Positions 1-60,973 of a stretch of DNA of 64,000 nucleotides are shown here, in pieces. The DNA lies in the NCBI GenBank assembly GCA_965246715.1, contig CBDFFH010000029.1:32001-96000 (forward strand). Direction: 5' to 3'. Below the pieces are notes generated by a model. The model made no database searches. It saw only the letters and a list, made by a program, of their open reading frames with translations, and was not told the origin of the DNA. The DNA comes from Chamaesiphon sp. Its GTDB lineage: Bacteria > Cyanobacteriota > Cyanobacteriia > Cyanobacteriales > Chamaesiphonaceae. How positions within the stretch are numbered: position 1 is the stretch's first letter; every line of letters begins with the position of its first letter. Both the position numbers and the translations under genes were made by a program.

Positions 1-2244
1 AGAAACATTCATCTTCATGATGCCAAATTTGACATTGAGATTGCCATGTTCGTCAACGGCGCTCAAGACTTCAGCTTTTTGCCCGATTTTCGGAATGCGG
101 ATGCGATCGCCAACTTTGGGATTGAAGCCTGGGGGCGGCTTGGGAGTCGATCGCGCGGACAATCGACGATTTGACACCGCATCCAGTTCTGAGGTAGCTT
201 GTTGGGCCGCTTGGGCAGTTTGTGGGCCTTGTTGAAGTTGCCGAATTACTTGGGCGATTTCGCCTTTGGCTTCGGCAATTGCGGCTTGAATCGCGCGTTC
301 TTGATTGGCTTTGAGTTCCTGTTCCCGCGCTTGTAATTCGGCGGCTTTTTGCGAAACTTCTAGATAAAATGCCTCTGCCTGTTTCAAGATTTTGGCAGCC
401 TCATTCGCCTTAGTTTCTTGGCTGCGCCGCTGCGCTTCCAGTCCAGCGATTACTTCATTGACTTCCTGAGTCGCCCCCAAAACCACCTGCGATTTGGCAT
501 TGTCGATCACTTCCGGATTCAACCCCAATCTCCCCGCGATCGACAGCGCATTCGATCGACCGGGAATGCCCCATAATAAGCGATAAGTCGGCGACAAACT
601 CACGTCGTCAAACTCCACCGAAGCATTTTCAAACCGGGAATCCTGATATTTGAGCGCTTTCAATTCCCCATAGTGAGTAGTCGCAATCGTCAACATCGCG
701 CGATCGGCTAAATACTGTAATAATGCGATCGCCAACGCACTCCCCTCCGCCGGATCGGTGCCTGCACCTACCTCGTCTAGGAGGACTAATGCGGCAGGGT
801 AATTGTGCTTAGGGGATTGAGGGGATTGTAAGTGGGTATCGTCAACCTGGAGGGTACCCACAAGGGGCACCCCTACGGATTCATCTACTCCGACATTAAT
901 CCCCTCCTGGGAGCGGTGCGCCACCGACGGGTTTCCCGTCGCACACGGCGCAACAAGACAGGGGGCAGGGGGTGGGTTCGTGTGCAAATTAGCACCATCA
1001 GCATTAATCGCCTCTAAAATCCGCCCAATCCGCCGAATATGCCCCGAAAAAGTTGACAGACTCTGCTGCAACGATTGCTCGTCCCCAATATCCGCCAAAA
1101 TCAAATCGAACCAGGGCACCTCAACTGGCTCCCGAGCGGGGATAAATAACCCCACCTTTGCCATCAAAGCGACGATCGCGAGTGTTTTGAGGGTGACCGT
1201 TTTACCGCCCGTATTTGGGCCGGTAATCGTGACTACACGCAGATCGGGACGGATCGACAGATCGATCGGAACTACTTCGGCACCTTGCTCGTGACGGTGT
1301 TTCCAGATCAGCAATGGGTGGCGGAGTTGGCGCATGGTGATATATTCACCAGCGGATCGATCGATCAGTCGGGGTGGATTGGCTTCCAACCATAGGCTAT
1401 ATCTAGCTCTAGCCGTCGCCAGATCGATCGTCGTTGCAACTGCCAGGAGATGTTCGAGATCCGCTTGGACTTCATTCACCTTATCCGTAAGCAGTTGCAG
1501 CACGATTTCGATTTCGCGTTGCTCTTGGCGTTGGAGTTGGCGAAATTGATTGCCCAGATTGATAATGTACTGTGGCTCGACATATAGCGTCGAGCCGCTG
1601 CCAGAAGTATCGTGGACTACTCCAGGAATCAAATCCTTATGCGAAGCTTTAACTGGGATAACGAAGCGATCGCCCCGTTGAGTAATTAATGGCTGATGGA
1701 TGGCATTGGATTGACGTTGGAGCAGATTGTTGAGAAATTGATAAATCCGATCGCGGAGTCCTTTAATTTTGACTCTAACTTCGGCTAATTTTTCACTCGA
1801 TCGATCTGTCACATCTCCACGATCGTCGATACAGTGATATATCTCCTGTTCTAGCTCGGGATAGGTGCGGACATCGGCAATTAATGACTGTAAAACGGGG
1901 ATATTTTCTGCACTATCGATCGTCCGCCGTAATTTTCGCATCCCTGCTAAAGTAGTCGCGATCTCGTGCAATTCTCGCCCAGACAGCATTCCATGTACCG
2001 AGGCGCGTTCGAGGGCATCGCCAAAATCTTCAATTCCATCGAACGACAACCCACCGATTAACTGGGTTTCTAACTGATAAATTTCTTTAGTCTGAGCGAG
2101 CAAATTGAGGCTGACACTAGGCTGCTGCGGAATGACTAAATGCCGTGCGGCGATCGCGCCTAACTTAGTCGCTGCAAATGTTGCCACCTGCTGGCACAAC
2201 CGCGACCACTCTAATAATTCTAATGTCTCTGCCTGGATCGCCAT
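1..2244 (-). CDS. mutS2: Endonuclease MutS2 (3' end beyond window start)
   Basis: Not in ORF track, consistent with no stop inside the window. Manual translation: MAIQAETLELLEWSRLCQQVATFAATKLG, Walker A ITGPNTGGKT, SLSTFSGH, Walker B LVLLDEVGAGTDP, ATTHYGELK. Confidence 0.95.
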   Translation of the reverse strand, partial: MAIQAETLELLEWSRLCQQVATFAATKLGAIAARHLVIPQQPSVSLNLLAQTKEIYQLETQLIGGLSFDGIEDFGDALERASVHGMLSGRELHEIATTLAGMRKLRRTIDSAENIPVLQSLIADVRTYPELEQEIYHCIDDRGDVTDRSSEKLAEVRVKIKGLRDRIYQFLNNLLQRQSNAIHQPLITQRGDRFVIPVKASHKDLIPGVVHDTSGSGSTLYVEPQYIINLGNQFRQLQRQEQREIEIVLQLLTDKVNEVQADLEHLLAVATTIDLATARARYSLWLEANPPRLIDRSAGEYITMRQLRHPLLIWKHRHEQGAEVVPIDLSIRPDLRVVTITGPNTGGKTVTLKTLAIVALMAKVGLFIPAREPVEVPWFDLILADIGDEQSLQQSLSTFSGHIRRIGRILEAINADGANLHTNPPPAPCLVAPCATGNPSVAHRSQEGINVGVDESVGVPLVGTLQVDDTHLQSPQSPKHNYPAALVLLDEVGAGTDPAEGSALAIALLQYLADRAMLTIATTHYGELKALKYQDSRFENASVEFDDVSLSPTYRLLWGIPGRSNALSIAGRLGLNPEVIDNAKSQVVLGATQEVNEVIAGLEAQRRSQETKANEAAKILKQAEAFYLEVSQKAAELQAREQELKANQERAIQAAIAEAKGEIAQVIRQLQQGPQTAQAAQQATSELDAVSNRRLSARSTPKPPPGFNPKVGDRIRIPKIGQKAEVLSAVDEHGNLNVKFGIMKMNVS
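852..876. repeat. GTAG-type REP-like palindrome inside mutS2
   Basis: GGGTACCCACAAGGGGCACCCCTAC; identical copies at 21086-21110 and 37332-37356 (inverted), interrupted copy at 37237-37319. Confidence 0.85.
913..960 (+). mobile_element. 48-bp structured mini-element (RCG...CAAGACA family), in-frame in mutS2
   Basis: GCG GTGCGCC AC CGACGGG TTT CCCGTCG CACAC GGCGCA A CAAGACA interrupting the host palindrome CCCCTCCTGGGA|GGGG. Confidence 0.75.
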
Positions 2245-2325
2245 TCTACACTCAATTTTGCACTTTCAATCATTATATGCTTTCGGTATTGGGTCATGGG
2301 TATCGGTCATTAGGGATACGAGTTC

Positions 2326-2886
2326 TTAGCCATTTGGATCGACCGCAGGCAGACGTTTGCGTCTGACTCTGACTGGACGTTGTTTCGGTGGTGTCTGGGC
2401 ATCCTCACCCCGTGCTGCGGCGGATTTATCGATATTGCCAGCTTTAACCCAGCCTTGAAGATTATCTGTTTCCGATCGAATCAACACCCATTGTTTGTCA
2501 GGACTGGTTTTAATAATTGCCACCTTCGCATTAAATGCCACTCCCCCAAGCTTTTCGGCACCAGGATCGGGAGCTTTCTTGAGCGATAATCCATCTTTCC
2601 AAACTACTTTGGCATCATAAGCTTCTGGTGGGAGCTTTTCAATAACATTTGGATCTTTAACAACTGGCGACTGGTTGGGTTTGACAGCGGCAACAGTTTT
2701 GGGCTTAACTGCGGCAATCGGTGATTTGTATCCTGGACGCTCTTCGGCAAATACTGGCTTTGGCGGATGAGTATTCATCTGGGTAACGAAGAAATAATAA
2801 CCCGCTCCACCCGCGATCGCACCCAATCCAACCAATCCCATGAGGACACCAATAAATAATTGTAGAGACTTTAATGCGGCATTCAT
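2326..2886 (-). CDS. Membrane-anchored bacterial SH3 domain protein
   Basis: N-terminal TM helix; C-terminal SH3b-like motif (WVLIRSETDNLQGWVKAGN). Confidence 0.8.
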   Translation of the reverse strand: MNAALKSLQLFIGVLMGLVGLGAIAGGAGYYFFVTQMNTHPPKPVFAEERPGYKSPIAAVKPKTVAAVKPNQSPVVKDPNVIEKLPPEAYDAKVVWKDGLSLKKAPDPGAEKLGGVAFNAKVAIIKTSPDKQWVLIRSETDNLQGWVKAGNIDKSAAARGEDAQTPPKQRPVRVRRKRLPAVDPNG

Positions 2887-3022
2887 AGATTAGGGAATAG
2901 GGGATAGGGGTTAGTGAACCTGATGGCGGCAAAAGAACCGGTAAAGATGCTCGGAGCGGCAGCGCTCACCTAACAAAATTAAGCCTAGCAATCGGTTGTA
3001 AATATAAGCGTAGATTTATCGA

Positions 3023-4519
3023 TTAACCTCTACCGACACCACCTTGTCTGGATGCTAGTCGGGCTTTGCCAGAGTTTGCCCAATCTTGAAGAAATTGAAT
3101 TTGGGCTTGGGCGGTGACGGCAAGCGGGATCATTTGACTTGCTGATTCTAGAATATCATCAGTAGTGAAATCGCGGTTTTGACTGAAGCCGATATGCATT
3201 GCTTCGATCAGAGTTTGCTCGATTTCAGCACCAGAAAAGTCCGGTGTTTCATATGCCAATCGATCGATATCATAATTTCCAAGATTATGGGGACGCAATT
3301 TAGTCAGATGGACGTTAAAAATTGCCCGCCGTTCTGCTCGCGTTGGTAATCCCACAAAAAAGATCTCGTCGAATCGACCTTTGCGTAACATTTCGGCGGG
3401 GAGCGAATCGATATTATTTGCTGTCGCAACGACAAACACGGGTGAAGTTTTTTCCGTCAGCCAGGTGATAAATGTCCCAAATACGCGACTGGATGTGCCT
3501 GCATCACCTTTCCCATCGACCCCAGCAAAAGCTTTATCGATTTCATCGATCCACAATACGCAGGGCGACAGCGCTTCGGCGAGTTGAATCATTTGTCTGG
3601 TTCGCGACTCCGATTCGCCTACCAATCCGCCAAATAGTCGTCCGACATCCAACCGCAACAGCGGTAAATACCAGTGATGCGAAATCGCCTTAGCAGTGAG
3701 CGATTTACCAGTCCCTTGAATTCCGACCAGGAGCAGCCCTCTCGGGTACGGGAGACCATATTGCCGCGCTCGATCGGAAAAAGACCCCCCACGGCGCAGT
3801 AACCAGTCTTTGAGATTATCTAAACCGCCGATATCGGTGATTTGTTCTTTGGCGGGATAGAAGTCGAGAATTTGGGTTTGACGGATGGTTTGGCGTTTTT
3901 CTTCAAGGACTAATTCGACATCTTCGGGACGAATTTCGCCATGAGTTGCGAGCGCGCGTGCTAATACCCGCCGAATGCGATCGAGTGATAAACCCTGACA
4001 AGCACGCACCAAGTCGTCTAAATTTTGGTTACTGAGATGATTGCCCGTAGCATTAATCAACCGCTCGATTTCGACTTTGATTTCGCTAGCGGTAGGGAGC
4101 GGAAATTCCAACACTACGATCGATTCGCTCAGATCGCTAGGAATGATAATCTGGGGCGAGAGGATGATGATATTTTTGGGTTCGGACTTGAGTTTGCGCG
4201 AGAGATTGCGAAGTTTTCTCGCCACGGAAATATCTTCCAGAAACCGATGGAAATCCCGCAGGATAAAAATTCCAGATACATCGGGACTGAGTTTATCAAT
4301 AAATTCTAAGGCTTGCAGCGGGTTGCGCCTTCCATAGCCGTTATCGTTGGGATTGCCCTGATAACCATCGACAAAATCCCAAATATAGATGGGGCGATTC
4401 CCTTGCTGCTTGGCAACACGTTCGATCGCATTTTCCACCCGCTCTTCTTCGGTGGTGGGAATGTAGATCAGGGGATATCGCGCCCGCAGGAGTAGTTCAA
4501 ATTCGGTACTAAAAGCCAT
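3023..4519 (-). CDS. ycf46: Ycf46-like AAA+ ATPase
   Basis: GIQGTGKS Walker A, LWIDEIDK Walker B, LRKGRFDEIFFV, N-terminus LLRARYPLIYI. Confidence 0.85.
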   Translation of the reverse strand: MAFSTEFELLLRARYPLIYIPTTEEERVENAIERVAKQQGNRPIYIWDFVDGYQGNPNDNGYGRRNPLQALEFIDKLSPDVSGIFILRDFHRFLEDISVARKLRNLSRKLKSEPKNIIILSPQIIIPSDLSESIVVLEFPLPTASEIKVEIERLINATGNHLSNQNLDDLVRACQGLSLDRIRRVLARALATHGEIRPEDVELVLEEKRQTIRQTQILDFYPAKEQITDIGGLDNLKDWLLRRGGSFSDRARQYGLPYPRGLLLVGIQGTGKSLTAKAISHHWYLPLLRLDVGRLFGGLVGESESRTRQMIQLAEALSPCVLWIDEIDKAFAGVDGKGDAGTSSRVFGTFITWLTEKTSPVFVVATANNIDSLPAEMLRKGRFDEIFFVGLPTRAERRAIFNVHLTKLRPHNLGNYDIDRLAYETPDFSGAEIEQTLIEAMHIGFSQNRDFTTDDILESASQMIPLAVTAQAQIQFLQDWANSGKARLASRQGGVGRG

Positions 4520-4590
4520 ATCTTAGATTATGACCTGCGGACTGGCAAATTACTAGTCGAAATGCTGGTAGTTGAAACCGCAGTTACAGA

Positions 4591-5009
4591 ACCTAAGTTG
4601 CTACTTAACCTCAGTTCGGGATAAGAAAAATTGATTTGCTCCGTTCTAGCACTGCCCTGAACTGGAAGTGTCTCGTTCCGAGAGGCTTCGCCAACGGGCT
4701 AATAGCTCAAGTTCTCTGAAGAGAACTACCAAATTTCTTAGTTCGTTAAAACGAACTTTTGCTATGAGCAACTAATGTATTTGATGGCGGTGCAGAAACG
4801 AAGCTAGCAATCATCGGGTAATCCTTATCCCGAACTCACGTTACTTAGAAATGCCTACGATTGAAATCGTGGCTAATGATGCAAAGTCCGCCTTCGCGGA
4901 CTGGTTTATTAGCCACGAAGGCGGGCTGTTGCCACGAGCGGCAACAGCCGGACTTTGCAACCTGATGAGTAGTTTCTAACCACTTTGGTTATAGGTTAGC
5001 AACTTAGCT
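4591..5009. mobile_element. Outer MITE-like element holding nested repeats
   Basis: Inverted ends ACCTAAGTTGCTA / TAGCAACTTAGCT (12/13 match); no clear target duplication; contains a type-B REP doublet and a type-A MITE. Confidence 0.5.
4608..4841. mobile_element. IS982-like MITE, type A
   Basis: Ends ACCTCAGTTCGGGATAAG / CTTATCCCGAACTCACGT; 6-bp duplication TACTTA (4602-4607, 4842-4847). Confidence 0.85.
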
Positions 5010-5040
5010 TACTTATCGGAAATTTATTTGTCTCGATCGA

Positions 5041-5751
5041 TTACGTAGGTTTAGTAAACACTAAAATATGCTGTTGTGGTAAATTGTCTTGAGTTTTTAC
5101 CCACTTTAACCCAACTGCTGCCATTTCCTTTTTTACCTGTTTTTGGGTCATTTTATGCAAACCTTTAATCGGGATGAATGGGTTTTCACCGCGATATTCT
5201 ACTAATACGATCCTGCCGCCTGGTTTTAAAGCTGTGACGATGTTGGTCATCATCTCGCGTGGATGATTAAACTCATGGTAGGCATCTACCATCAGCGCGA
5301 CATCGACGGTATTTGCCGGTAAATTAGGACTGGTTTCTGTACCGAGCACTGGCTCGACATTACTAATTTTTTTATCCTTCTTTAAAAAGCTAAGCATGTC
5401 AATCATTTCTGGTTGAATATCTACTGCTAGGACTCGTCCTTTCGGTACCAACCGCGCCATCCGAAAGCTAAAATATCCCGTTCCCGCACCAATATCCGCA
5501 ACGATGTCAGTCGGTTTGAGGTTGAGTGACTGAATTACTACCGTTGGTTTCTCTTCGACATCGCGCGTCGATCTCTCCAACCACATCGCTTCGGTATGCC
5601 CCATCACCTTGGCGATCTCTCGACCCATGTAGAATTTGCCAATCCCATCGGGACTCGCATTAGCAATCTGTGCGGTGAAACCGGGTGTAGAAATCCAGCA
5701 GACGATCGAACACGCACAAATTACCAGCCAGCGATTGAAGTGATTTAGCAT
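5041..5751 (-). CDS. Exported class I SAM-dependent methyltransferase
   Basis: VADIGAGTGYF motif I, AVDIQPEM, signal-like N-terminus. Confidence 0.85.
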   Translation of the reverse strand: MLNHFNRWLVICACSIVCWISTPGFTAQIANASPDGIGKFYMGREIAKVMGHTEAMWLERSTRDVEEKPTVVIQSLNLKPTDIVADIGAGTGYFSFRMARLVPKGRVLAVDIQPEMIDMLSFLKKDKKISNVEPVLGTETSPNLPANTVDVALMVDAYHEFNHPREMMTNIVTALKPGGRIVLVEYRGENPFIPIKGLHKMTQKQVKKEMAAVGLKWVKTQDNLPQQHILVFTKPT

Positions 5752-5833
5752 AGATACCAAAGGATGAATCCTGTTTATTTAAGCCTAACGCCTGAGGATG
5801 AATTAGGGCGCTAGAAAAAGATCGCTACGACAG

Positions 5834-5862
5834 TTGACAAGTAAAAGATAACAGTGCATAAT
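5834..5862 (+). promoter_or_regulatory. Sigma70-type promoter of tRNA-Asp
   Basis: TTGACA-17 bp-CATAAT, ending 18 bp before the tRNA. Confidence 0.7.
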
Positions 5863-5880
5863 GAGATCTGTTGAATAAAT

Positions 5881-5954
5881 GGGACTGTAGCTCAGTTGGT
5901 TAGAGCGCGCGCCTGTCACGCGCGAGGTCGCGGGTTCGAGCCCCGTCAGTCCCG
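5881..5954 (+). tRNA. trnD: tRNA-Asp (GTC)
   Basis: Acceptor stem GGGACTG/CAGTCCC, D arm, anticodon arm CGCGC-CTGTCAC-GCGCG, GGTTCGAG T loop; CCA not encoded. Confidence 0.97.
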
Positions 5955-5973
5955 TCCGAGTTAGTTGATATAT

Positions 5974-6609
5974 TTACCTGCCTACCTGTTGGGATAGAAT
6001 TTCTATCGCTTGAGGTAGGATTTGGTGTTCTTGGACTTGTACTCTGGCATGAAGGGTGTCAGCAGTATCGGCAGGTAAAACTGGTACGGCTGCTTGCACC
6101 AGGATCGGGCCGCGATCGACTTCTAAACTGACTAAATGTACCGTACAGCCAGTAATTTTGACACCAGCTTCGAGCGCTTGCTCGATCGCCCGAATCCCTG
6201 GAAAACTGGGCAACAGACTGGGGTGAATGTTGATAACACGATCGGGATAAGCATCGATCAGAACTTGGGTAATCACCCGCATCCACCCAGCCATCACCAC
6301 GCACTCGACTCGATACGCTTGGAATGTTTGCACGATCGCCAGATCGAGTTCTTCGCGACTAGTATAGGCTTGATGTTCGAGTAAGACGGTGGGAATGCCT
6401 CTACTTTGTGCGCGATCGATCGCTTTAATCCCTGGCTTATTATGAATGAGCACAGCAATTTTTGCGTTGAGCCGATTTCGATCGATCGCTTGGGCAACAG
6501 CTTCAAAGTTGCTACCACTACCCGATGCCATGATGCCGAGGATGAGTGGCGGATTAGCTGCGAGTGTGGGTGTGGGGAAAGGAGAGATGAGGCTGGCTGA
6601 ATCGGTCAT
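5974..6609 (-). CDS. purN: Phosphoribosylglycinamide formyltransferase
   Basis: MASGSGSNF, NIHPSLLPSFPG, GCTVHLV motifs. Confidence 0.97.
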   Translation of the reverse strand: MTDSASLISPFPTPTLAANPPLILGIMASGSGSNFEAVAQAIDRNRLNAKIAVLIHNKPGIKAIDRAQSRGIPTVLLEHQAYTSREELDLAIVQTFQAYRVECVVMAGWMRVITQVLIDAYPDRVINIHPSLLPSFPGIRAIEQALEAGVKITGCTVHLVSLEVDRGPILVQAAVPVLPADTADTLHARVQVQEHQILPQAIEILSQQVGR

Positions 6610-6611
6610 TC

Positions 6612-6643
6612 GATTTTGGATTTTGGATTTTGGATTTTGGATT
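6612..6643. repeat. Heptamer tandem repeat (GATTTTG)x4, STRR-like
   Basis: Read directly; shorter inverted run at 6910-6927 before the divergent gene. Confidence 0.85.
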
Positions 6644-6930
6644 GTCCCTATCGATATAAGGGTAGGGACTCGAAACGTTGTTACTGTCGATCGGCGGGAA
6701 GTCAGTGTCGAAGAGATCTGAATCTAGTCGATCGATCCTCTAACATAGTGTGTATGGGTTCAGTTTATCAATCGATAGCTGTTATCGATCGCGCCGATCT
6801 TCAACTAGCAACTCGCACATCGAAGCAGAAATTCAGACGCTTTATTTTGCAGCTATTTTTAGAGCGAGTCGTTTCGTTCCTGGCTCTATCTCTCCATCTA
6901 CCAAGCTTTAATCCAAAATCCAAAATTCAT

Positions 6931-8826
6931 ATGACTTCCGATGCTGGCGCTACGTCCATCCGCGAACGCTATCAACAGACGATCTCCGAAATTGTCGATC
7001 GCATCCTTACGGGGAAACAGGCGATCTCTAAAGAGTATATTTCGCAAGTTCTGCTCGAACAGATCGAGTTAGGGACGAGCGAGATTTTTGAGGGGTGTTT
7101 GAGCGAGCAGATCCAGCGGGTTACTGCTGCTATCGCCAGCGAAACCAGTGAAGTCAGGCAAGCCAAAATCGGGCATCAGCTCAAGGCGATGCAGTGGATT
7201 CAGGCGGCGCTGGTAGGATGGCAAGACGAACGCCAAGCTGTAGCCGTTGTCACCCAGACGCTCGATCGCATCGTCACTGCAAATCCTGACGAACGCCTGA
7301 ATATTCTCCTCCAAGCACTAGATCCCAATCAAGAGCGACGGCTATCAAATGCCCAGATTAAACTAATTATCCAATCGTTGCGGACATCAGCAAACAGCAA
7401 TTTACAGCCATCAGATTTCGAGCAACTCGCACAATTGGCTGGCGGACTCGATCGCGGCTTAACTGCCCTCCCAGCTTTAGAACCACATTTAGTCAGTTGG
7501 ATTTATGAAAACGGTCAACAAATCGGGTTTGGTGGGGTGACGGAGAATGGCCCCTGGACGCTGTGGGCGAGACAAATAGATCGACCGCTAATTAAGTCAT
7601 TATTTCAAACGATCGGTCGCCAACAGTCGATTTCCGATCTTGCAGCCGCAATCGGCAGTGGGGATGAAGGGGAATGGGCAGAATTGGCGATCGTGATGCA
7701 AAGTATCCAAATCGCGTTAGTGGCTTGGTTCGATCGGCAGATGTACGATCGCGTCTGGGGCGAACGGATGTCGTTTAGCTCTTTGATTACGTTTGCCGCG
7801 ATTTGGAGTGAATTGGCAAATGGGGTTGGACGAGCGACGGGGATAAGTAGCAGCCATCGGGAAGCGATTGCGAAAGCTTGTTTTCAAGTAACGCTGCAAA
7901 TCCTTCGGACTGCGGCGCAACGACCGAATTTCCCACTTTACGGCGGGATTTTTGCATCATTTTCTGGGGAAACGCTGCGCGATACTCTATCCTATTTCGA
8001 TCTCCCCCTCAAGCAGGTAGCGGGGACGCAAGAAAAAGGACGACTGTTGACTATTTTGGGTTATTCACAACAAGCTCTCGGGCAGATCGATCGCGCAATT
8101 GTTCTCCACCAAGAAGCCTTAGAAATTGCCAATCGCGCCGGAGATCGTCCGTGCGAAATTGCCAATCTCAACCATCTGAGTCGGATTGCGATCGGCCAAA
8201 AAGATTATCCACAGGCAATTAGTTACAGCCAACGCGCGCTCATTTCCGCCAGACAGACGGGCGATAAGTTAGGTGAGGCTAACGCCTTAATTAATGTCGG
8301 TTATGCCGAAGTTCTCGCCGCATATTCGATCGATCGATTGGATGAGGAGATCTACGAGCAAAATATCGGTTATCTCGATCGGGGTTTAAAACTTGCCGAA
8401 ACCCTCGAAGATAAACAAAGTTTAGCCCTGTGCTATCACAGTCTCGGACTCGCACATCTGACGCTCCAGCAACCCGAAAAAGCGATCGAATATCTCCAGC
8501 AAGGTACCAAAGCCGCCCAAGCTGTCGGCGATTTGTACTTACAGGGATTGAATCTCACGTATTTAGCCGAAGCACATCATACTATTAATAAAAACGAAAC
8601 TGCTGTTTTTTATAGCTGTCTGGCCATGTATCAATTACATCAGATCGGTGCGAGAGAATGGCGACAAGCTGCTAGTTTGGCAACGGTATTACAAGGACAA
8701 TTAGGCAAAGAAAAGTTTGCCGAATTATTAACTAAGTATCGCCCAAATTTATTACCGGCGATCGGGGTTGATGGTTATGATTATTTACCTAAATTAATCG
8801 CCAAGTATTTAGATGGGGGCGAGTAA
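6931..8826 (+). CDS. Tetratricopeptide repeat protein
   Basis: C-terminal TPR repeats (ALGQIDRAIVLHQEALEIA, etc.); ATG 6931 preferred because the longer ORF starts inside the heptamer repeat. Confidence 0.85.
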   Translation: MTSDAGATSIRERYQQTISEIVDRILTGKQAISKEYISQVLLEQIELGTSEIFEGCLSEQIQRVTAAIASETSEVRQAKIGHQLKAMQWIQAALVGWQDERQAVAVVTQTLDRIVTANPDERLNILLQALDPNQERRLSNAQIKLIIQSLRTSANSNLQPSDFEQLAQLAGGLDRGLTALPALEPHLVSWIYENGQQIGFGGVTENGPWTLWARQIDRPLIKSLFQTIGRQQSISDLAAAIGSGDEGEWAELAIVMQSIQIALVAWFDRQMYDRVWGERMSFSSLITFAAIWSELANGVGRATGISSSHREAIAKACFQVTLQILRTAAQRPNFPLYGGIFASFSGETLRDTLSYFDLPLKQVAGTQEKGRLLTILGYSQQALGQIDRAIVLHQEALEIANRAGDRPCEIANLNHLSRIAIGQKDYPQAISYSQRALISARQTGDKLGEANALINVGYAEVLAAYSIDRLDEEIYEQNIGYLDRGLKLAETLEDKQSLALCYHSLGLAHLTLQQPEKAIEYLQQGTKAAQAVGDLYLQGLNLTYLAEAHHTINKNETAVFYSCLAMYQLHQIGAREWRQAASLATVLQGQLGKEKFAELLTKYRPNLLPAIGVDGYDYLPKLIAKYLDGGE

Positions 8827-8912
8827 GGTATCGCCAGACTCATGACTTCTTGCACTCAAGTATACTGCGACTCGATCGGTTGCCAATGAGAGCCAAAACG
8901 CTTTACTCCCTA

Positions 8913-9125
8913 ACTTCAGTTTGAGGTAAGCAGAATTAATTTGCTTCGCTCGAGCACCGCCCTGAACTATAAGTTCGGGCTAACAGCGAAAGTTCGTTGA
9001 AACGAACTGACCAATTGCTTAGTTCGTTTCAACGAACTTCTGCTTTTAGCCCCAAATTCATTTGAGGGCGGCGATCGAGCGAAGCAAGAAGTCATCGCTC
9101 GGAAATCCTTATCCCAAAAGTATTG
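8913..9125. mobile_element. Degenerate IS982-like MITE, type A
   Basis: Internal CCCTGAACTATAAGTTCGGGCTAA and GTTCGTTGAAACGAAC hairpins as in 49131-49391; decayed ends. Confidence 0.75.
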
Positions 9126-9197
9126 GGAATTAAATCCGATTGCCACATAAAGACGGTCAGGTGTAGTATTATACTTAATCTCAAGGTTATTTTTCAG

Positions 9198-14042: not shown

Positions 14043-14061
14043 TAAGTTAGAGCGGTAGATA

Positions 14062-37236: not shown

Positions 37237-37356
37237 GGGTACCCACAAGCGACGCGCGCTCCTCGGGTTTCCCGAGGGTTTCCCGAGGGTTTAGCGCGTC
37301 AAGACAGGGGCACCCCTACAGGTTTAATTGTGTAGGGGTGCCCCTTGTGGGTACCC
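37237..37356. repeat. Inverted REP doublet; left REP interrupted by a 58-bp mini-element (37249-37306)
   Basis: Removing 37249-37306 restores GGGTACCCACAAGGGGCACCCCTAC exactly. Confidence 0.85.
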
Positions 37357-49130: not shown

Positions 49131-49391
49131 ACGTGAGTTCAGGATAAGGAAAATCGATCTGCTTCGCTCAATCACCGCCCTGAACTATAAGTTCGGGCTA
49201 AAAGCAAAAGTTCTCTTCAGAGAACTGCCAAATCAGTCAGTTCGTTTCAACGAACTTTTGCTTTTAGCCCCTGATTGGTGCAACACATGCGGAGGGAACC
49301 TCCGCGTGATTGCATCCGCAAATTCATTTGAGGGCGGTTCAGAAACGAAACTAGGAGTCATTAAGCAAAGATCCTTAACCCGAACTCACGT
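49131..49391. mobile_element. IS982-like MITE type A containing a 48-bp mini-element (49272-49319)
   Basis: ACGTGAGTTCAGGATAAG / CTTAACCCGAACTCACGT; 7-bp duplication TAACTTA. Confidence 0.9.
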
Positions 49392-49395
49392 TAAC

Positions 49396-51047: not shown

Positions 51048-51079
51048 TCACGTTAATTACTGTCGATCGATTATTGAAA

Positions 51080-52318: not shown

Positions 52319-52492
52319 ATCAGTTATCGGTTGTGCGGCTATTTTTATTGCTAACTATCAGAATACTAGAATTGGTGACTGGGTATCAGTTATTTGCGGT
52401 TTACCGATCGGGTAGCTGGTCGATCCGATCGATCGGCGAACTAATACCCCTGTAGACTAGTCACTAATAACTAGTCACTTGCAACTATCTCA

Positions 52493-53344
52493 ATGACCAC
52501 TCCAACATCACTACAGATCTCCAAACCGACGCGCTATCAAAATGCTGCGATCGATTATTACACTGGGCTTACCGGTACATCTTACCTACATTATGGCTAT
52601 TGGCAACCAGTACCAGCTTCGATCGATGATGTGACCTTGCCTCGGATGCGTGTCGCCCAGGAAGCATATGCCACGAAATTACTCGATCTGATTCCTGCTG
52701 GTGTCAGTACGATCCTCGATGTTGGTTGTGGGATCGGTGGTAATGCCAAAACTATGCTCGCGCGCGGCTTTAATGTCGAAGCCTTGGCACCAGATCCGCT
52801 GCAACAACAAAAATTCATTAAATATACAGAAGGAAAGATCCCATTTCATCTGAGTACATTTGAAGATTATCAAACCGATAAAACTTACGACCTAGTCTTA
52901 TTTAGCGAAAGCAGTCAATATATTTCTGTCGATAACTTAGCTGCGGGTACAGCAAGCATCCTCAAGTCTGGCGGCTATTTATTGTTAGCAGATATGATGC
53001 GATCGGATGCCAATTACCAGGAGGGTATTTTCTCAAATTGTCATCTCAAAAGCGAGCTAGAGACAGCATTAATTGCCGCAGGATTTAAGCTAGTCGAGAT
53101 CCAAGATATCTCCGCCGAAATCGCTCCGACGATCGATCTCTGTATCGAAGCTTTTCGCACCTATGGATTGAGTACGATCGAGTATATCTCTGCCCTAGTC
53201 AAGATTGCCGTACCCCCGATTCATGCTTTGGGCAGTTCGGCATTCAAAAAATGGTTATCAAAACCCATCGCTGAAGGTTTATCCGCCCGCACGATTTACG
53301 ATCGACATCTGTGCTACGAGATTCAACTTTGGCAGCTTGGTTAG
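52493..53344 (+). CDS. Class I SAM-dependent methyltransferase
   Basis: YLHYGYW, ILDVGCGIGG, FSESSQY. Confidence 0.85.
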   Translation: MTTPTSLQISKPTRYQNAAIDYYTGLTGTSYLHYGYWQPVPASIDDVTLPRMRVAQEAYATKLLDLIPAGVSTILDVGCGIGGNAKTMLARGFNVEALAPDPLQQQKFIKYTEGKIPFHLSTFEDYQTDKTYDLVLFSESSQYISVDNLAAGTASILKSGGYLLLADMMRSDANYQEGIFSNCHLKSELETALIAAGFKLVEIQDISAEIAPTIDLCIEAFRTYGLSTIEYISALVKIAVPPIHALGSSAFKKWLSKPIAEGLSARTIYDRHLCYEIQLWQLG

Positions 53345-53382
53345 GGAATGTTAATTCTCCGGCTGTGAGCTACAGCTCCCCA

Positions 53383-54219
53383 CTACTCTTTCATCCCTGT
53401 GCTCGCAATACCCTGAATAAACTGCTTCTGTCCTACCAAAAATAGTAATACCACCGGTACGGTAGCGATACCGACTGCGGCCATTAGGAGTTGCCAACTA
53501 TTGGTAAATTGTTCTTGAAACTCGGATAGCGCCAATTGTACCGTGCGAAGTTCGGGACGGGTAGTAAAAATCAACGGTTTGAACAGATCGTTCCATTCAC
53601 CGATGAAGGTGAATAGAAATAGCGTCACCAATGCAGGACGAGATAAGGGTAACATAATCCGCCAGAGAATTTGGAGCCGATTGGCACCATCCAAACTGGC
53701 GGCTTGTTCGAGTTCGATCGGAATGGTGCTAAAAAATTGCCGTAATAAAAAGATCCCAAAACCGTTGGCGGCGGTAGGTAAAATCAGGGCGCTATATGTA
53801 TTCAGTAAATGTCCCCACTTGAGGAGCAAGAAAATCGGGATGACCAGTAATTGGAAGGGAATGACTAGCGTAGCCAGTACCACCAGCAGGAGCGCTTGAC
53901 GACCCCGAAATCTAAGCCGAGCCAATGCATACCCCGCCAACGCCGATGTAAAAATCTGCGCCGCAGTTACCGCCAGTGCCACAAAAGTAGAATTGGCAAA
54001 CGCCAAGAGGAAATTGCCTTGTTGCCAAGCGGCTCGATAGTTGGCAACAGTAAGCTGAGGCGGTAGCTCAAAGCCAGTTGCCGCAGTGTCTACTGGTGTA
54101 AAGGAGGTAATGGCAACGACTACTAATGGAGCTAAAATCAGACCAGCACCAATGATGAGGAGGAGCCAGTTAAGGATTTGCCACCAGCGCAAATAGCCAG
54201 AATCAGAGAACTTATGCAC
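53383..54219 (-). CDS. Carbohydrate ABC transporter permease
   Basis: EAA loop ELEQAASLDGA, WNDLFKPL. Confidence 0.92.
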   Translation of the reverse strand: MHKFSDSGYLRWWQILNWLLLIIGAGLILAPLVVVAITSFTPVDTAATGFELPPQLTVANYRAAWQQGNFLLAFANSTFVALAVTAAQIFTSALAGYALARLRFRGRQALLLVVLATLVIPFQLLVIPIFLLLKWGHLLNTYSALILPTAANGFGIFLLRQFFSTIPIELEQAASLDGANRLQILWRIMLPLSRPALVTLFLFTFIGEWNDLFKPLIFTTRPELRTVQLALSEFQEQFTNSWQLLMAAVGIATVPVVLLFLVGQKQFIQGIASTGMKE

Positions 54220-54426
54220 GGTTTGGTCTACGATCGGTTAAGATAGGGGAGTTTGAAAATTGCAACAAATCTTTAAATAGACAGTCTGTAGTTATGTAGT
54301 TCGCTCGATCGCTATTTTTCGATAAATCTACCCTACACCCACATTATCCCTAAATAGGGATGCAGCCAGCTTTAATGCTGGCGTAAAATAATCTTATTCG
54401 GACATATTTTAGGAGAAATCTAGCTC

Positions 54427-55122
54427 ATGGTGCAGATGGCAGCCAGTTTGGAACTTGACTTCAAAAGCGAAACTTATAAAGATGCCTACAGTCGCATCAA
54501 TGCGATCGTGATCGAGGGCGAACAAGAAGCGCATGAAAACTACATTACCCTGGGTGGACTGTTACCAGACTCCCAAGAAGATTTAGTCAAGTTGTCCAAA
54601 ATGGAACTGCGTCACAAGAAAGGCTTTGAAGCCTGTGCGCGCAATCTCACCGTCACTCCAGATTTAGGTTTTGCCAAAGAGTTTTTTGCAGGGTTGCATG
54701 AAAATTTTCAGGTGGCCGCCGCCGCCGGAAACATTGTCACCTGCTTGTTAATTCAATCGCTGATTATCGAGTGCTTTGCGATCGCTGCATACAATATCTA
54801 TATTCCTGTAGCTGATGATTTTGCCAGAAAGATTACTGAAGGGGTAGTTAAGGATGAGTACATGCACCTTAACTTCGGCGAAGTCTGGCTGCAAGCCAAC
54901 TTTGAAGCATCTAAAGCCGAGTTGCAAACCGCCAACCGTCAAAATCTCCCGCTCGTCTGGAAGATGTTAAACCAAGTCGCCAAGGATGCTAAGGTCTTGG
55001 GAATGGAGAAGGATGCGCTAGTTGAGGATTTTATGATCGCTTACGGTGAAGCCCTCAATAATATCGGTTTCAATACGGGCGAAATCATGCGGATGTCTGC
55101 TTATGGCTTGATGGGCGTTTAG
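54427..55122 (+). CDS. ado: Aldehyde-deformylating oxygenase
   Basis: [41 protein letters not shown]. Confidence 0.96.
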
Positions 55123-55151
55123 ACGCAGAAAACGAGCATCGCCTTAGCGCC

Positions 55152-55190
55152 AGACAAGGCACCAGAGTATCGATGCTCTGGTGCCTTGTC
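55152..55190. terminator. Hairpin between convergent ado and WD40 genes
   Basis: GACAAGGCACCAGAG-TATCGATG-CTCTGGTGCCTTGTC. Confidence 0.75.
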
Positions 55191-55192
55191 AT

Positions 55193-58100
55193 TTATACAT
55201 CGTAATTTACTGCGCCTAATGCTTTTAGCCCATCGATCTGTGCTCTGGTAAGACCTTCGACACCACCGATCTTCATCCCCTCATAAGGACGGCTAGCACG
55301 TCGCGTCGAGATAAGTTGGTGAGTAGTTAGATCCCAAATCCCGATCGTTTCATCTTCGCTCGCACTGGCGATAAACCGACCGCAATAACTCACCGCTACC
55401 GACCAAACCCAACTTTGATGTCCGGTTAGAGTCCTGACACACAAACCAGTCTCCATCGACCAAATTTTAATCGTCCGATCGGAAGCGCCACTAATCAGCC
55501 ACCGACCATCAGGACTGTAGGCAAGCGATAGAATCCACCCTTCATGTCCGGTCAATGTGTGGCACAGTTCGCCCGTGTGGACGTGCCAGAGCAGAATTTG
55601 ACTATCCATGCCACCGCTAGCAAGGATAGTGCCACACGGGTCAAAGGCGACAGCGAGCGATCGATTGCTATGTTGGGTAAAGATCCGTACTGACTCTGGC
55701 TGCTGAAGATTCCAGATTCTGACGGTGGTATCTTCGCTGGTGCTCACAATCGCGGTGTCCGAGAGTGAGTCACTGGGATGATAAGCGAGACTGCCGATCC
55801 GATCGGTATGTCCGTTGCGAACGTGCAAACAGCGACCCCGCTCGGCATCCCAGATTCTAATCGTGCGATCGTTACCACCACTGACTAAATATTTACCATC
55901 GGGACTGTATGCCAGCGTGCAGATCGCCTCGGTATGTCCCCGGAGTGTATGGATGCGAACTAGCGTGCGGGCATCCCAAATGCCGATCGTCCGATCGTCA
56001 CTCCCACTGGCAAAAGTCACCCCTTGCGGATCGTAAGCTACTGTCAGGGTAGATTTGGTATGACCCAACAATTGGTGGACACAATCTGCTGAGTGCAGAT
56101 CCCAAATCCGAATCCCTGCATCGCGACTAGCCGTAATTAATCGATCGCTCTTAGGACTCCACGCGATCGATTTAAACCAATTAGAATAACCGCTGAGTAC
56201 TTGCCAGCATTTACCATCCTCGATCTGCCACAACCGGATCTCCCGGTCTTCGCCACCGCTAGCGATCGTCTGTCCGTTGGGGTGAAAAGCTACCGACCAC
56301 AAGCGTTTAGTGTGTCCCTCCAACCGCTGGAGACAATGACCGTCGGTTTGCCACACGCGTAACAATCCGCCCACTCCCGCACTCGCCAACCGTGTGCCAT
56401 CGGGACTGAAAACCGCAGACCAGATCTCATCGCCATGCCCATCGATAACTAGCAAACATCGATCGCTAGTGGCATCCCAGAGCCGCAGGGTACCATCGAG
56501 ACTACCACTAACGATCTTTTGACCATCTCCACTGAAATCTACTGTTGTCACCCAATTTGTGTGCCCTTGCCAGATGCGTAGGCAATCACCAGTGGCGATC
56601 TCCCACAACCGCACGCTACCGTCCCCACTGCCACTCAGTAATTGGTGCCCTTGCGGGTGAAACTTCAGATCCATCGACCAGCCTTGATGTCCGACAAACT
56701 CGCGGATACAAGTGCCAGTCTGGATCTCCCAGTAATAAATCGTATTGCGATCGCTCCCACTAGCTAAATATCGCCCGTCGGGACTAAAACTCAATCCGAG
56801 AGTGTGAATTCCCTCGCCGAGCGTACTGAGACAGATGCCATCTTGTAAATCCCAAATTTTGAGCGTGCGATCGTCGCTAGAACTGGCTAGATACTGCCCA
56901 TCAGGACTAAACTTAATCGCCCGCACCCAATTAGTATGTCCCAGGCAAGTGAGTACGCATTGACCGTCGCTAAGTCGCCACAGGCGAATTTCCCCGCTAC
57001 TAGTACTGGCGGCAAGGGTATTGCCATCGGGACTGTATGCCAGCGATAGCACGTTACTAAATGTTTGGGTAAAGGCGCAATCCCGCAGGTGCGAGTTGGT
57101 AAAGTTAACCCGCTTTAAGTCAAGGTTAACTAGATATGCTTGCTGGATTACCAATTCCGAGCAATCCAAATCGGTCAGATCCAACTTGAGCTGGCCGCAT
57201 AGATTTAGTAAATTACCAGCGAGATAGCCTTGATGTAGGGGATGGGTGCTTCGCCACCGCGCGAGGATTTGGTATAGCTGTGCGCCGATTTGCTGGGGGT
57301 TGCCGATGCTGGTGCGGAGTCGTTCGATCGCGGGTTGGACGATCGGCCGTAATTGCGCTTGGCGGATATACTCTTTGGCAGTAGCTTGCAAGATCGGATG
57401 CGTATCTAGCAAAAATGGTGTCTGCGTCTCGATTTCCGTACAAATGCGATCGACGAATTTACTGGTGACATATTCCATCACCATCGGTTGGAGCGACCAA
57501 TAGCGATTGCCACGTTCGAGTTGTCTACCGATCGTGAGAATAATGCTGCGACGGCACAAAAATTGTAAAACACTCAGTAACGAAGACGCTCCAGCTGCAT
57601 TGCTAGTGGTGGAGTCTGTAGGCAAACCGAACGGCTGTCGATCTAGTTCCGCCCGATCGTCATCGCGGAACTGGCGATTCCAAGCTGGATGGAGGGCTGC
57701 CTCTAAATTGACGATCGACAGCGGTTCGCGCGCGATTGCCAACCAATACATCACCTGATGTTCGACTGGTGTCAAGCGCTCCCACTGCTGTTCGAGGAGG
57801 TTATGAATATCGGTAAAACTGAATCGCTCCGATCGCAAGTAGGGATAAATTTCACTGACATCACCATCGGCGACTTCTTTCACCACTGCGGCAACAAGTT
57901 GAAACGCTAGTGGATTGCCTCCATAATAACGATCGATTTCCACCCATTCGGCTGCGGCGATCGGCAAACAGCCGCGATCGGCAAAAATCTGTTGTCCCGC
58001 TACCGCATCCAAGCCTGGTAATGTCAGGGTTCTGACCTTAGCATTCACCCCTTCTAGCCAACCCACTTCCGTCGGTTTTTCGCGACTGGTGAGCACCAGA

Positions 58101-58987
58101 CAACTCTGATGATTCATCCGTCCCAAGGTACTAAATAACTCCCCATAATCGGCGTAGCCAGATCGATATCGACCGACTTGTGCCCCACCTTGAAAAATCG
58201 ATTCACAATTATCTAAGAAGATCGCACAGCGATGTTGTTGACACAATACCAGCAATAATTCGATCTGGGCTGTTACTGATGTCGGGATGGCATGATAATG
58301 CAGATCCTTACCACCCAAGACATTTACGGCCGTCTTAGCCGTAGCCGTGCGAATTAAATTGCCGATCAATTCTGGGAGTAATTCCTTGAGTAAGGGCGCA
58401 TTGAGCAAACTCCGCCATAAAATCTGGCTGAAACTTTGACCTCGATCGGGTGCCTCATCTTCGCTCGCACTCCATTTTAGCTGGCGCTTTGGCTCGTGAC
58501 GATCGCTAGTCTGGATCTCAGCTTGCAACGCTTGTGAGAGTTCGATCGCAATTGTCGTTTTGCCCATTCCCCCCATCCCCAAGATCGTCACTAGCCGACA
58601 ACGATCGACTACCAGCCACCGATATAATTGACGACACTCCACCTCACGCCCGTAAAATACTGAGGCATCGATCGTCTCGCCCCAATCGATCCTGGGCGGT
58701 GGTAATAACGGTACATCGATCGCTGCTGGTAACTCAGCTAGTGCTAAAGACTCAATTACCTGACGAAAATTAGTTTTAGAGACTCTCTGTTCGGTAGCAG
58801 TTGCCAGCATTCGCCAAACTTGTGCGCCTACTCCCTTGAGGTAGTCATGGTCGTAGCCAGCTATTTTAGCAAGATCGCGGTAAGATCTACCCTCCCAAGC
58901 TGCCTTGAATACCATTTCTTGGGGTGCAGTTAGGTATCTTGGCGCTAGCAGTTCTTTGACCATCTCCAATGCTAGTTCTACTTCCAT
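55193..58987 (-). CDS. HTH + NB-ARC (STAND) + WD40 repeat protein
   Basis: P-loop GMGGMGKT, LDNCE, LTSRE, GGNPLA; about 14 GH...WD repeats. Confidence 0.93.
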   Translation of the reverse strand: MEVELALEMVKELLAPRYLTAPQEMVFKAAWEGRSYRDLAKIAGYDHDYLKGVGAQVWRMLATATEQRVSKTNFRQVIESLALAELPAAIDVPLLPPPRIDWGETIDASVFYGREVECRQLYRWLVVDRCRLVTILGMGGMGKTTIAIELSQALQAEIQTSDRHEPKRQLKWSASEDEAPDRGQSFSQILWRSLLNAPLLKELLPELIGNLIRTATAKTAVNVLGGKDLHYHAIPTSVTAQIELLLVLCQQHRCAIFLDNCESIFQGGAQVGRYRSGYADYGELFSTLGRMNHQSCLVLTSREKPTEVGWLEGVNAKVRTLTLPGLDAVAGQQIFADRGCLPIAAAEWVEIDRYYGGNPLAFQLVAAVVKEVADGDVSEIYPYLRSERFSFTDIHNLLEQQWERLTPVEHQVMYWLAIAREPLSIVNLEAALHPAWNRQFRDDDRAELDRQPFGLPTDSTTSNAAGASSLLSVLQFLCRRSIILTIGRQLERGNRYWSLQPMVMEYVTSKFVDRICTEIETQTPFLLDTHPILQATAKEYIRQAQLRPIVQPAIERLRTSIGNPQQIGAQLYQILARWRSTHPLHQGYLAGNLLNLCGQLKLDLTDLDCSELVIQQAYLVNLDLKRVNFTNSHLRDCAFTQTFSNVLSLAYSPDGNTLAASTSSGEIRLWRLSDGQCVLTCLGHTNWVRAIKFSPDGQYLASSSDDRTLKIWDLQDGICLSTLGEGIHTLGLSFSPDGRYLASGSDRNTIYYWEIQTGTCIREFVGHQGWSMDLKFHPQGHQLLSGSGDGSVRLWEIATGDCLRIWQGHTNWVTTVDFSGDGQKIVSGSLDGTLRLWDATSDRCLLVIDGHGDEIWSAVFSPDGTRLASAGVGGLLRVWQTDGHCLQRLEGHTKRLWSVAFHPNGQTIASGGEDREIRLWQIEDGKCWQVLSGYSNWFKSIAWSPKSDRLITASRDAGIRIWDLHSADCVHQLLGHTKSTLTVAYDPQGVTFASGSDDRTIGIWDARTLVRIHTLRGHTEAICTLAYSPDGKYLVSGGNDRTIRIWDAERGRCLHVRNGHTDRIGSLAYHPSDSLSDTAIVSTSEDTTVRIWNLQQPESVRIFTQHSNRSLAVAFDPCGTILASGGMDSQILLWHVHTGELCHTLTGHEGWILSLAYSPDGRWLISGASDRTIKIWSMETGLCVRTLTGHQSWVWSVAVSYCGRFIASASEDETIGIWDLTTHQLISTRRASRPYEGMKIGGVEGLTRAQIDGLKALGAVNYDV

Positions 58988-59321
58988 CAGATCTTCTCCT
59001 CAACAGCTTTAGATCTAGAAATCGATTTTGCCAAATTCACGATCTCCAAGCTGAGATATAACGCTCTTGGATTAACAGTATTCCTCAGGCATTCTAACCT
59101 GTTTGACTAGTGATGTTGGGGATTATCTCTTCACTGCGATCCAATCGAACGCAGCTGACATAACCGGGGTACAATCGGTTAAAAACTGTCAGACAGCTAG
59201 TGGTAAGCTGCAAAGATTTGTCTCGATCGAGAGCGTTAGCGCCGAGTCATAAGTGGCGATCTTCCACAGCAACCACTATCGAGATAATTTAAAGATCGCT
59301 AAAACTTAAGGATAATTACTT

Positions 59322-60452
59322 ATGATGCTCGGTCAGTGGTTGGGGATTTTAGTCTTAGTATTATCGCTCTATATCTTGTGGCAAATCCGCCAAATGCTGT
59401 CGCTGGTTTTTGCCGCGATCGTGGCCGCTACCCTCCTCAATCAATTAGCGCGTAAGCTCCAACATCAATTTAGATTATCTCGTCCGCTCGGGGTGCTCGG
59501 AGCCTTAGCAATATTTATTATCATTTTAGTTGGCTTCGCGATCGCGATTTTCCCACCATTTATCAGTCAATTTCAAGAACTTACTACCACAAAATTTCCA
59601 GCGATCGTCAAATATGCCAGTCAGTGGCGCACTCATATTCAAACTTATATCCCAGCCGCACTGATTCCCTATTTACCAGATCTCAATAATCTGGATCGTC
59701 AAGTTCAACCATTATTAAAGTCGCTAGCTGGTAGTTCGCTCACGATCTTTTCTAGCTCGTTAGCTGCAATTCTCAATCTCTTATTTGTGGTGATTTTAAC
59801 GATTATGCTGCTGGCTCAACCTACCAGCTATCGGCGCGTATTTATCGCTTTATTTCCGAGTTTCTATCGACGTAGGGTGAGTGGCATTCTAACCGAATGT
59901 GAAGAATCGCTGGGCAAGTGGTTTGGTGGGGCGATCCTGAGTATGTTAGTCGTAGCCGCACTCAGTTTTATTGGTTTGATCGTATTAGGTATTCCCTTAG
60001 CTTTAGCACAAGCTATTTTAGCTGGCTTACTCAATTTTATCCCCAATGTTGGCCCGACATTAAGCGTTGTCATTCCGATGGCGATCGCCTTACTCGATGA
60101 ACCCTGGAAAGCGATTGCGATTTTTGTTATTTATCTACTAATCCAACAATTTGAAAGTAATTTTCTCACTCCCTATATCATGTCGCAACAGGTAGCTTTA
60201 TTGCCTGCCATCACGCTAGTTTCTCAAATATTTTTCACTACCTTTTTCGGCTTTCTGGGCTTATTATTGGCACTTCCACTTACTGTCGTCGGTAAGGTCT
60301 GGATTAATGCTGTCTTGATTGAAGATATTCTCGATCGCTGGAAATACTTTCGTCAGAGTCCTGCTGAATTAGACCGCACTTCACAGGTAGAAACCGAAGT
60401 GGTGATGACTTCAGAACAGAGCAATGCTGATTCGATCGACGAGTTGAAGTAG
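59322..60452 (+). CDS. AI-2E family transporter
   Basis: Multi-TM; LNFIPNVGP, QQFESNFLTP, GLLLALPL. Confidence 0.9.
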   Translation: MMLGQWLGILVLVLSLYILWQIRQMLSLVFAAIVAATLLNQLARKLQHQFRLSRPLGVLGALAIFIIILVGFAIAIFPPFISQFQELTTTKFPAIVKYASQWRTHIQTYIPAALIPYLPDLNNLDRQVQPLLKSLAGSSLTIFSSSLAAILNLLFVVILTIMLLAQPTSYRRVFIALFPSFYRRRVSGILTECEESLGKWFGGAILSMLVVAALSFIGLIVLGIPLALAQAILAGLLNFIPNVGPTLSVVIPMAIALLDEPWKAIAIFVIYLLIQQFESNFLTPYIMSQQVALLPAITLVSQIFFTTFFGFLGLLLALPLTVVGKVWINAVLIEDILDRWKYFRQSPAELDRTSQVETEVVMTSEQSNADSIDELK

Positions 60453-60973
60453 CGTGATTTCGGGTTAAGGATATTTGCTTATTTCGAGTCCCGCCGCCGA
60501 TTGTGTCTTGTCTCGCTTTTCGCGTCGGGTTTCCCGACGGGCGCGAGCCGTAAATCGGGGCTAGTATTACAAAGTCCGGTTGTTGCCGCTCGCGGCAAAA
60601 GCCTGCCTACGCGGACTGATTAACTAACGTCAGTTCGGGATAAGAATAGCTTGGAGACTTCTAGTCTCTAGGCATTTCCTATCCCGAACTCACGTTACTT
60701 TAACGTGAGTTCGGGATAAGGATCTTTGCTTCGTTCCAGCACCGCCGCCGATTGAAATCGGGGCTAACATTACAAAGTCCGCCTTCGCGGACTGATATCT
60801 TAGTCCGCGAAGCGAAAAGTGCGGTCTTGAGGTTTCCCCAAGTAGAGCACCTTTTCAAGACAGCGACGCGCGCTCCTCGGGTTCCCCGAGGGTTTAGCGC
60901 GTCAAGACAGGCGGACTTTGCATCATGAGCCGAGACTTCTAGTCTCTACGCATTTCCTATCCCGAACTCACGT
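60452..60973. mobile_element. Cluster of three IS982-like MITE units (60452-~60620, 60627-60695, 60703-60973) with four nested mini-elements
   Basis: Repeated ACGT(G/C)AGTTCGGG / CCCGAACTCACGT ends; inserts at 60504-60551, 60578-60604, 60812-60862, 60863-60909. Confidence 0.88.

Follow-up and report, generated by a model that had tools for sequence, protein, structure and literature searches.

A family of 47–51-base hairpin elements with fixed ends and changeable stems in Chamaesiphon and other cyanobacteria

How bacterial repeats that are too small to carry genes are moved has been an open question since such elements were reported in cyanobacteria. A 64,000-nt stretch of the genome of Chamaesiphon sp. 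(GenBank assembly GCA_965246715.1, contig CBDFFH010000029.1, positions 32,001–96,000; hereafter the window) raises this question again, as it contains six small hairpin inserts lying within other repeats. These inserts belong to a family of 47–51-base hairpins with fixed ends and changeable stems, which occupies about 145 places in this genome and is present in relatives from at least 11 families. Mobility of the family is well supported.

The six inserts and the family they represent

The coordinates, strands, ends and stems described for the six inserts in an earlier reading of the window (i.e. the original prediction) were all verified in the sequence. The inserts are as follows, where a vertical bar marks the insertion junction.

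913..960, + strand: 48-nt element of the CAAGACA subfamily, A|G junction
37249..37306, + strand: 58-nt element, consisting of the 47-nt subtype and an 11-nt tandem duplication spanning the loop
49272..49319, - strand: 48-nt element of the GCGGA…CCAAGCA subfamily (own tail CCAATCA), T|G junction
60504..60551, - strand: 48-nt element whose loop is inverted (AAA) and whose position 1 is A, T|C junction
60812..60862, + strand: 51-nt element of the widespread GCGAAAAGT subtype, first member of a tandem pair
60863..60909, + strand: 47-nt element, second member of the tandem pair, junction GACA|GCG

All six folded on both strands as an outer stem, an internal loop and a 7-bp inner stem (z -1.9 to -4.8), with one mismatch in the inner stem of 60812..60862. 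A covariance model whose training rows include four of these inserts returned exactly the six from the window at E ≤ 2e-7, the next match having an E of 0.049, while a strict pattern recovered three of the six where shuffles expect 0.01.

The host genome (6.1 Mb, 46% GC, 2,789 HIP1 sites) gave 155 matches (104 distinct) in a structural scan, as compared to 12 in a genome of the same size simulated with a Markov model. Removal by eye of 11 unstructured or truncated matches left 144 copies at 101 distinct sites, beyond which further nested and decayed copies exist. These elements are 47–51 nt in length and have fixed ends, reading GCGR…CAAGACA or CCAAGCA; the CAAGACA tail was present in 118 copies and the CCAAGCA tail, which marks a second subfamily (i.e. 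GCGGA…CCAAGCA), in 26. Among genus relatives, 18 of 18 were positive for the strict pattern with 14–191 copies each, and none of 12 other genome draws was positive. Across the phylum, 13 of 301 genomes carried the strict pattern, the reversed pattern giving 0–1 matches. The covariance model detected the family in 31 of 141 genomes of the order, representing 11 families, and the same ends were present in the loci where the strict pattern displayed them (16 of the 25 loci shown). A scan of GTDB for one subtype produced at least 107 loci, with all 80 titled rows being cyanobacterial, and records named Chamaesiphon bore the same subtype in the same hosts. Eight plasmid records matched the element, all of them cyanobacterial. 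In a viral scan, three of 120 loci passed the structure filter and the remainder look like chance; a phage collection contained no element match, and no tRNA genes were found near 54 carrier loci. A relative with the same inner module and different outer ends was observed in a Gloeothece tnpB gene (L416:1500-1541), hinting at a wider superfamily.

The stems vary extensively and remain paired. The 143 distinct sequences of the CAAGACA type comprised 15 different inner arms and 14 different outer ones, perfectly paired; Watson-Crick pairs numbered 829 of 858 in the inner stem and 557 of 572 in the outer, the inner stem also having seven G-T and seven A-C pairs. The stems of RNA families are not so purely Watson-Crick. 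Covariation in an alignment of 35 rows, six of which were out of register, was 0.608 as compared to 0.192 in shuffles (0/500 as high), with slid partners reaching at most 0.262. An orthologous copy has a TTT loop in this genome (G000) and an AAA loop in a close relative (G310), i.e. the loop has been inverted in place, and fully symmetric variants of the element occur. Template switching is reported to homogenise arms and invert spacers (PMC8604942, PMC8794818). As this process evens out arms and flips spacers, the stem pairing is partly mutational and part of the covariation may have arisen in this way; the fixed ends and near-constant length are beyond what template switching explains. The predicted conserved fold with variable, paired stems was borne out, but in view of in-place loop inversion and the symmetric variants it is not proof that structure is recognised.

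Filled sites, empty sites and the insertion junction

Mobility was assessed by comparison of G000 copies with 1.2 Mb of G310, in which 20 G000 copies and nine G310 copies were testable. A script assigned five of the 20 G000 copies as shared, two as precisely empty and 13 as other (i.e. larger or mixed differences). By inspection, four were precisely empty in G310, including 913-960, and one further copy was empty with the loss of 6 extra bases; in most of the others the whole host was missing or replaced. Three of the nine G310 copies were shared, two were precisely empty in G000 and four fell into the other class. The empty allele of 913..960 was also present in contigs of runs X1 and X2 (both from one study), and an independent indel scan of G000 against G310 revealed a precise 47-nt insertion in unique sequence. 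Filled and empty alleles differed with base precision and without target duplication, as had been predicted. One base of one host was occupied by different subtypes, and identical elements were found in unrelated hosts. The host motifs predicted to be restored by excision were all intact elsewhere in the window (three, two, three and one times for the four motifs). The element is very probably a mobile unit, in agreement with the prediction of a mobile family with precise insertion.

Junctions at the 101 sites of this genome were A|G (56), T|G (14), T|C (12), A|T (6), A|A (5), G|G (4) and other (4). The W|G junction (W, A or T) thus occurred at 70 of 101 sites against a background of 0.118, counts that are not independent because hosts repeat. 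In 101 sites from other cyanobacteria, the junctions were A|G (74), T|G (11), A|A (10) and other (6), giving W|G at 85 sites. C at position -1 was absent from both sets. A W|G junction is the general insertion rule; its opposite strand reads C|T or C|A, and the target resembles the junction of the element's own ends, GACA|GCG. Where the junction is T|G, T|C or A|T, both the A and the G are part of the element. As the inserted copy retains these two bases at sites other than A|G, exchange takes place at a single point between the junction bases. No bias towards the transcribed strand was observed (39:30, P = 0.34; 37:38).

At least eight unrelated host classes were present among the 101 sites, of which 10 were heptamer sites, including insertions in GGATTTT-type heptamers, and 15 were tandem or nested. 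None of the 101 site rows was a split HIP1 by inspection, in keeping with the prediction of targets other than HIP1. Insertion into host hairpin loops had also been proposed. This holds for the present genome, where 39 of 81 sites fell between -2 and +5 nt from a hairpin dyad as compared to 73 of 2000 controls, but not for other cyanobacteria, where six of 87 sites (one subtype) lay at a hairpin dyad and G-rich short repeats dominated. The proposed lack of terminal inverted repeats was correct in that the ends are asymmetric, but the outer stem amounts to an inverted repeat in sub-terminal position, located 2–3 nt from one end and 6–7 nt from the other. [quoted passage not shown]

In the window, the hosts themselves are varied. 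The 913..960 copy lies within a CCCCTCC-type palindrome as a 16-codon in-frame insert in mutS2; the host of 37249..37306 is the loop of a GTAG-type repetitive extragenic palindrome (REP); 49272..49319 sits about 5 nt off the dyad of its host palindrome; and the junction of 60504..60551 is the dyad of a CGATTTCAATCG host. The tandem pair at 60812..60909 is placed in the loop of GTCCGCGAAGGCGGAC and recurs in at least eight further copies of its host. Two larger features carry some of these inserts.

1..2244, - strand: mutS2 gene, running off the window (TIGR01069, E 6.5e-227), host of the in-frame 913..960 element
60703..60973, strand not assigned: MITE-like host with ACGTGAGTTCGGG terminal repeats, bearing REP-like palindromes and the tandem pair

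The mutS2 loop ahead of the Walker B region (window 850-1010) gathers in-frame repeats (i.e. a REP, a CCCCTCC palindrome and the hairpin element) and differs between strains. Six G310 sites (L050, L052, L067, L090, L094 and L105) contained a 104-bp MITE that has a TA-type duplication and carries heptamer arrays; this MITE was absent from these sites in G000.

Candidate enzymes and rival explanations

The reading that we favour, tentatively and at somewhat less than even confidence, is that a gene-less hairpin of 47–51 bases, gained and lost whole at exact W|G junctions, travels as folded single-stranded DNA and is moved in trans by an HUH-type enzyme. Folding would bring the two ends of the element close to each other; both ends would be cut on a single strand by the enzyme, at C|T or C|A in 5'-TGTCTTG…YCGC-3'; the cut element would close as a small dumbbell circle; and this circle would be inserted where exposed single-stranded DNA, for instance at hairpin tips or in G-rich short repeats, offers a similar junction. 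Domesticated Y1 transposases, either REP-associated tyrosine transposases (RAYT) or subclass 1.2, would be the leading, unproven candidates. A single exchange point between two bases fits single-strand cutting and joining, although the single-stranded intermediate of the original prediction is still an inference. TnpA-REP cleaves at C|T, and both CT and CA are cut by one enzyme (PMC8266576). REPIN intermediates have a 5' tail (PMC3116915), as does the minus strand of the element. Six Y1 hits were obtained in the genome, comprising RAYT types and three with a Y---Q-HH motif, which PMC6006769 assigns to subclass 1.2. Several of the host repeats of the element flank Y1 genes. The subclass 1.2 Y1 genes L012, L013 and L015 are flanked by long palindromic repeats; this subclass is described as being without REPs (PMC6006769).

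Several results weigh against this HUH-type reading. The element contains no GTAG guide, its ends being GCGR and CAAGACA or CCAAGCA, and host GTAG motifs at 81 sites showed no link to strand (5' of the cut on the C|W strand at seven, on the other strand at six and on both at three). Around each of the six Y1 hits in this genome, a distance of 4 kb was free of copies. Of the 14 genomes positive for the pattern, eight had a subclass 1.2-like gene, as did 16 of the 36 negative ones, and a RAYT model matched nine of 14 and 32 of 36, respectively, giving no clear co-occurrence in either case; at least four of the pattern negatives became positive with the covariance model and the enzymes are common, Y1 being present in 49 of 50 genomes such that presence is uninformative. 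One genome (G323) had 142 copies and no subclass 1.2 match, and another (G295) had 17 copies and no RAYT match. The T-rich loops lie on the GCG…GACA strand, arguing for the other strand as the folded one. Moreover, 31 of the 101 sites here are not W|G, and the two-letter agreement in cut site, a pattern match only, could be due to chance. A lagging-strand bias might be expected, but no replication-strand pattern was apparent by eye in two near-complete genomes (G310 and G323); an apparent pattern in G295 was not repeated in either of these.

The absence of a candidate mobility enzyme from the window, as stated in the original prediction, was upheld, and the search proposed there yielded no HUH, reverse transcriptase (RT) or IS110 gene linked to the element. 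No gene was enriched among 162 neighbours of the copies. Long elements with the same ends were sought as autonomous partners in this genome and in the retrieved loci, the only convincing ones being IS4 insertions in the loop.

Two alternatives invoke other enzymes of the cell. Movement by a host enzyme of general function that cuts single-stranded DNA and seals it again (e.g. a type IA topoisomerase or hairpin repair) or by an unrecognised small nuclease, with no dedicated transposase, is rather unlikely. It would suit the retention of the same ends across 11 families with no mobile-element enzyme tracking them, the clustering at hairpin tips in this genome and the seven-member topoisomerase IA cluster found there, but a universal enzyme leaves the patchy distribution (31/141 genomes) unexplained and the fixed 7-nt tail suggests specific recognition. 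Transcription of the element, followed by reverse transcription of group II intron or retron type and insertion as cDNA, we consider unlikely. RNA intermediates have reportedly been proposed for cyanobacterial small dispersed repeats (Elhai and colleagues, 2008), the genome has 22 RT hits that include group II intron open reading frames (ORFs) and a retron-like RT, the fold is conserved and target duplication is absent. Against this stand the near absence of G-T wobble from the stems, three-base T loops where RNA tetraloops are expected, insertion without orientation bias to transcription and a distance of at least 2.7 kb between any RT gene and the nearest copy. No Rfam family matched the element at gathering score, the window scan giving only a tRNA and Plastid-psbN, and a group II intron or retron derivative was rejected as intron ends and a retron-like leader were unmatched and no RT gene was linked. 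The type IA topoisomerase gene at L415:222-2450 is one of seven similar clustered copies.

An IS110/IS1111 bridge-RNA recombinase, with an AG (CT) dinucleotide as its core and sub-terminal repeats supplied by the outer stem, is very unlikely. Two IS621-like families are active here, target REP-like repeats and contain CAAGACA in their right end, a 2-bp ambiguity is possible at A|G sites, and the 3-nt and 7-nt end spacing of the element recalls that of IS1111. However, CAAGACA stops 6 nt short of the end of the insertion sequence (IS) and of its own CT core, a double-stranded circle of 48 bp is implausible, and the targets share about 2–4 bases rather than a common, guide-defined sequence of about 14 nt. 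The crossover of the element between two bases is also unlike IS621, which cuts after the CT core (PMC11208158), and an IS110/IS1111 derivative was rejected on the grounds of crossover and targets. The IS621-like IS110 families (L001-L009) have the donor ACAGTAT-CT-TGTAT and insert at CCCCT|AC of REP-like repeats; by inspection, their junction would form a sigma-70-like promoter. Lastly, the element may have no movement of its own, owing its spread to gene conversion between host repeats and to carriage by MITEs or IS, while template switching perfects its stems. This is highly improbable and, as sole cause, largely refuted. One host context is common to many copies, 13 of the 20 testable loci fell into the larger or mixed class of the script (mostly host loss or replacement), loops are inverted in place and copies hitch-hike within tnpB genes. 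Passive spread does not account for precise insertion in unique sequence, nor for at least eight unrelated host classes, five tnpB positions and insertion of the element into itself, always with the same two ends.

Relation to known repeats and consequences for the genome

The family is best described as a variant, larger in size, of the small dispersed repeats (SDRs) already known from cyanobacteria. SDR1-8 of Nostoc and relatives are reportedly 21–27 nt in length (Elhai and colleagues, 2008). Like SDRs as reported, the element is gene-less, inserts precisely without duplication, has a common fold with compensatory changes and is found in heptamer repeats, mini-transposons and copies of itself; unlike them, it measures 47–51 nt and has two stems, a fixed 7-nt tail and a W|G junction rather than HIP1. 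The likeness to SDRs drawn in the original prediction therefore stands for behaviour, but the size definition is missed. A 45–48-nt class of Nostoc iterated sequences, reportedly found in trnL introns (Costa, 2002), would be similar in size, both name and class being uncertain; none of 18 trnL introns, all from one genus, carried the element. Lateral stem-loops inserted at one fixed site within the heptamer repeats of P6b in the trnL intron are described in PMC4476775, and the text of its supplement gave no match to the element end motifs, the alignments perhaps lying outside that text. SDR5 inserts in HIP1 (PMC4390886), between bases 3 and 4. Hairpin inserts of 24 nt were polymorphic between G000 and G310 at CG|AT sites (e.g. 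L090, L052 and L056), like SDR5 in HIP1, and inserts of 21–24 nt also nest within the 48-nt elements, giving separate junction rules in the same genome. A literature search found no description of the hairpin family; Elhai 2008, Olsson 2012 and Costa 2002 were beyond its reach, so that absence from print is not established.

With the REP/REPIN-RAYT system the element shares an irregular-stem hairpin, a one-sided tail, lack of duplication, extragenic bias and, as a pattern match only, C|T or C|A junctions (70/101 here and 85/101 elsewhere). It differs in lacking GTAG, in not flanking a Y1 gene in this genome, in showing no clear co-occurrence with one, in being a single hairpin as compared to a REP doublet and in using REPs as targets. 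The IS110/IS621 system is similar in its lack of classical duplication, REP-like targets and CT dinucleotide at the junction, and differs in cut position, target breadth and size.

Carriage by other mobile elements was also observed. Of 133 element matches in other genomes, 10 were in frame in ORFs matching the TnpB family and an eleventh was in a matching fragment, 26 of 36 candidate ORFs having been scanned. These copies occupied five positions, one of which recurs in six loci of different taxa, and tnpB genes are a plausible vehicle of the element between genera. The in-frame tnpB copies are L110, L120, L145, L150, L156, L158, L166, L169, L195, L403 and L404; four of the five positions are on the sense strand. 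An IS4-family element of 1,483 bp with a 9-bp duplication is present at L414 (G000:C40:38977-40459) and in seven other copies, with GGGNNNCCC as target. Seven of eight full copies had a flank in the mini-element loop, four with an intact 9-bp duplication, and 119 of 772 GGGNNNCCC sites fell within hairpin elements. Separately, a 1,326-aa ORF (L018, G000:C43:21545-25525) has an RT domain, a protease-like motif and the look of a eukaryotic retrotransposon; as judged by inspection, it is possibly assembly contamination.

The element shapes the landing positions of IS4 and writes in-frame inserts of 16–17 residues into genes (i.e. mutS2 and tnpB). The fullest form of the proposal, which is possible though doubtful as a whole, is an undescribed, order-wide micro-transposon of single-stranded DNA, recognised by its fold and 10-base end junction, that is a parasite of domesticated HUH enzymes without using GTAG, is borne between genera by tnpB and serves as a landing pad for IS4. 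If true, no earlier small dispersed repeat would have had a testable enzyme, and the element would provide a minimal 48-base substrate for scarless insertion. The family, being abundant, strain-polymorphic and exact in its ends across 11 families, makes the movement of gene-less repeats a testable question, and its simple junction rule points to one enzyme chemistry.

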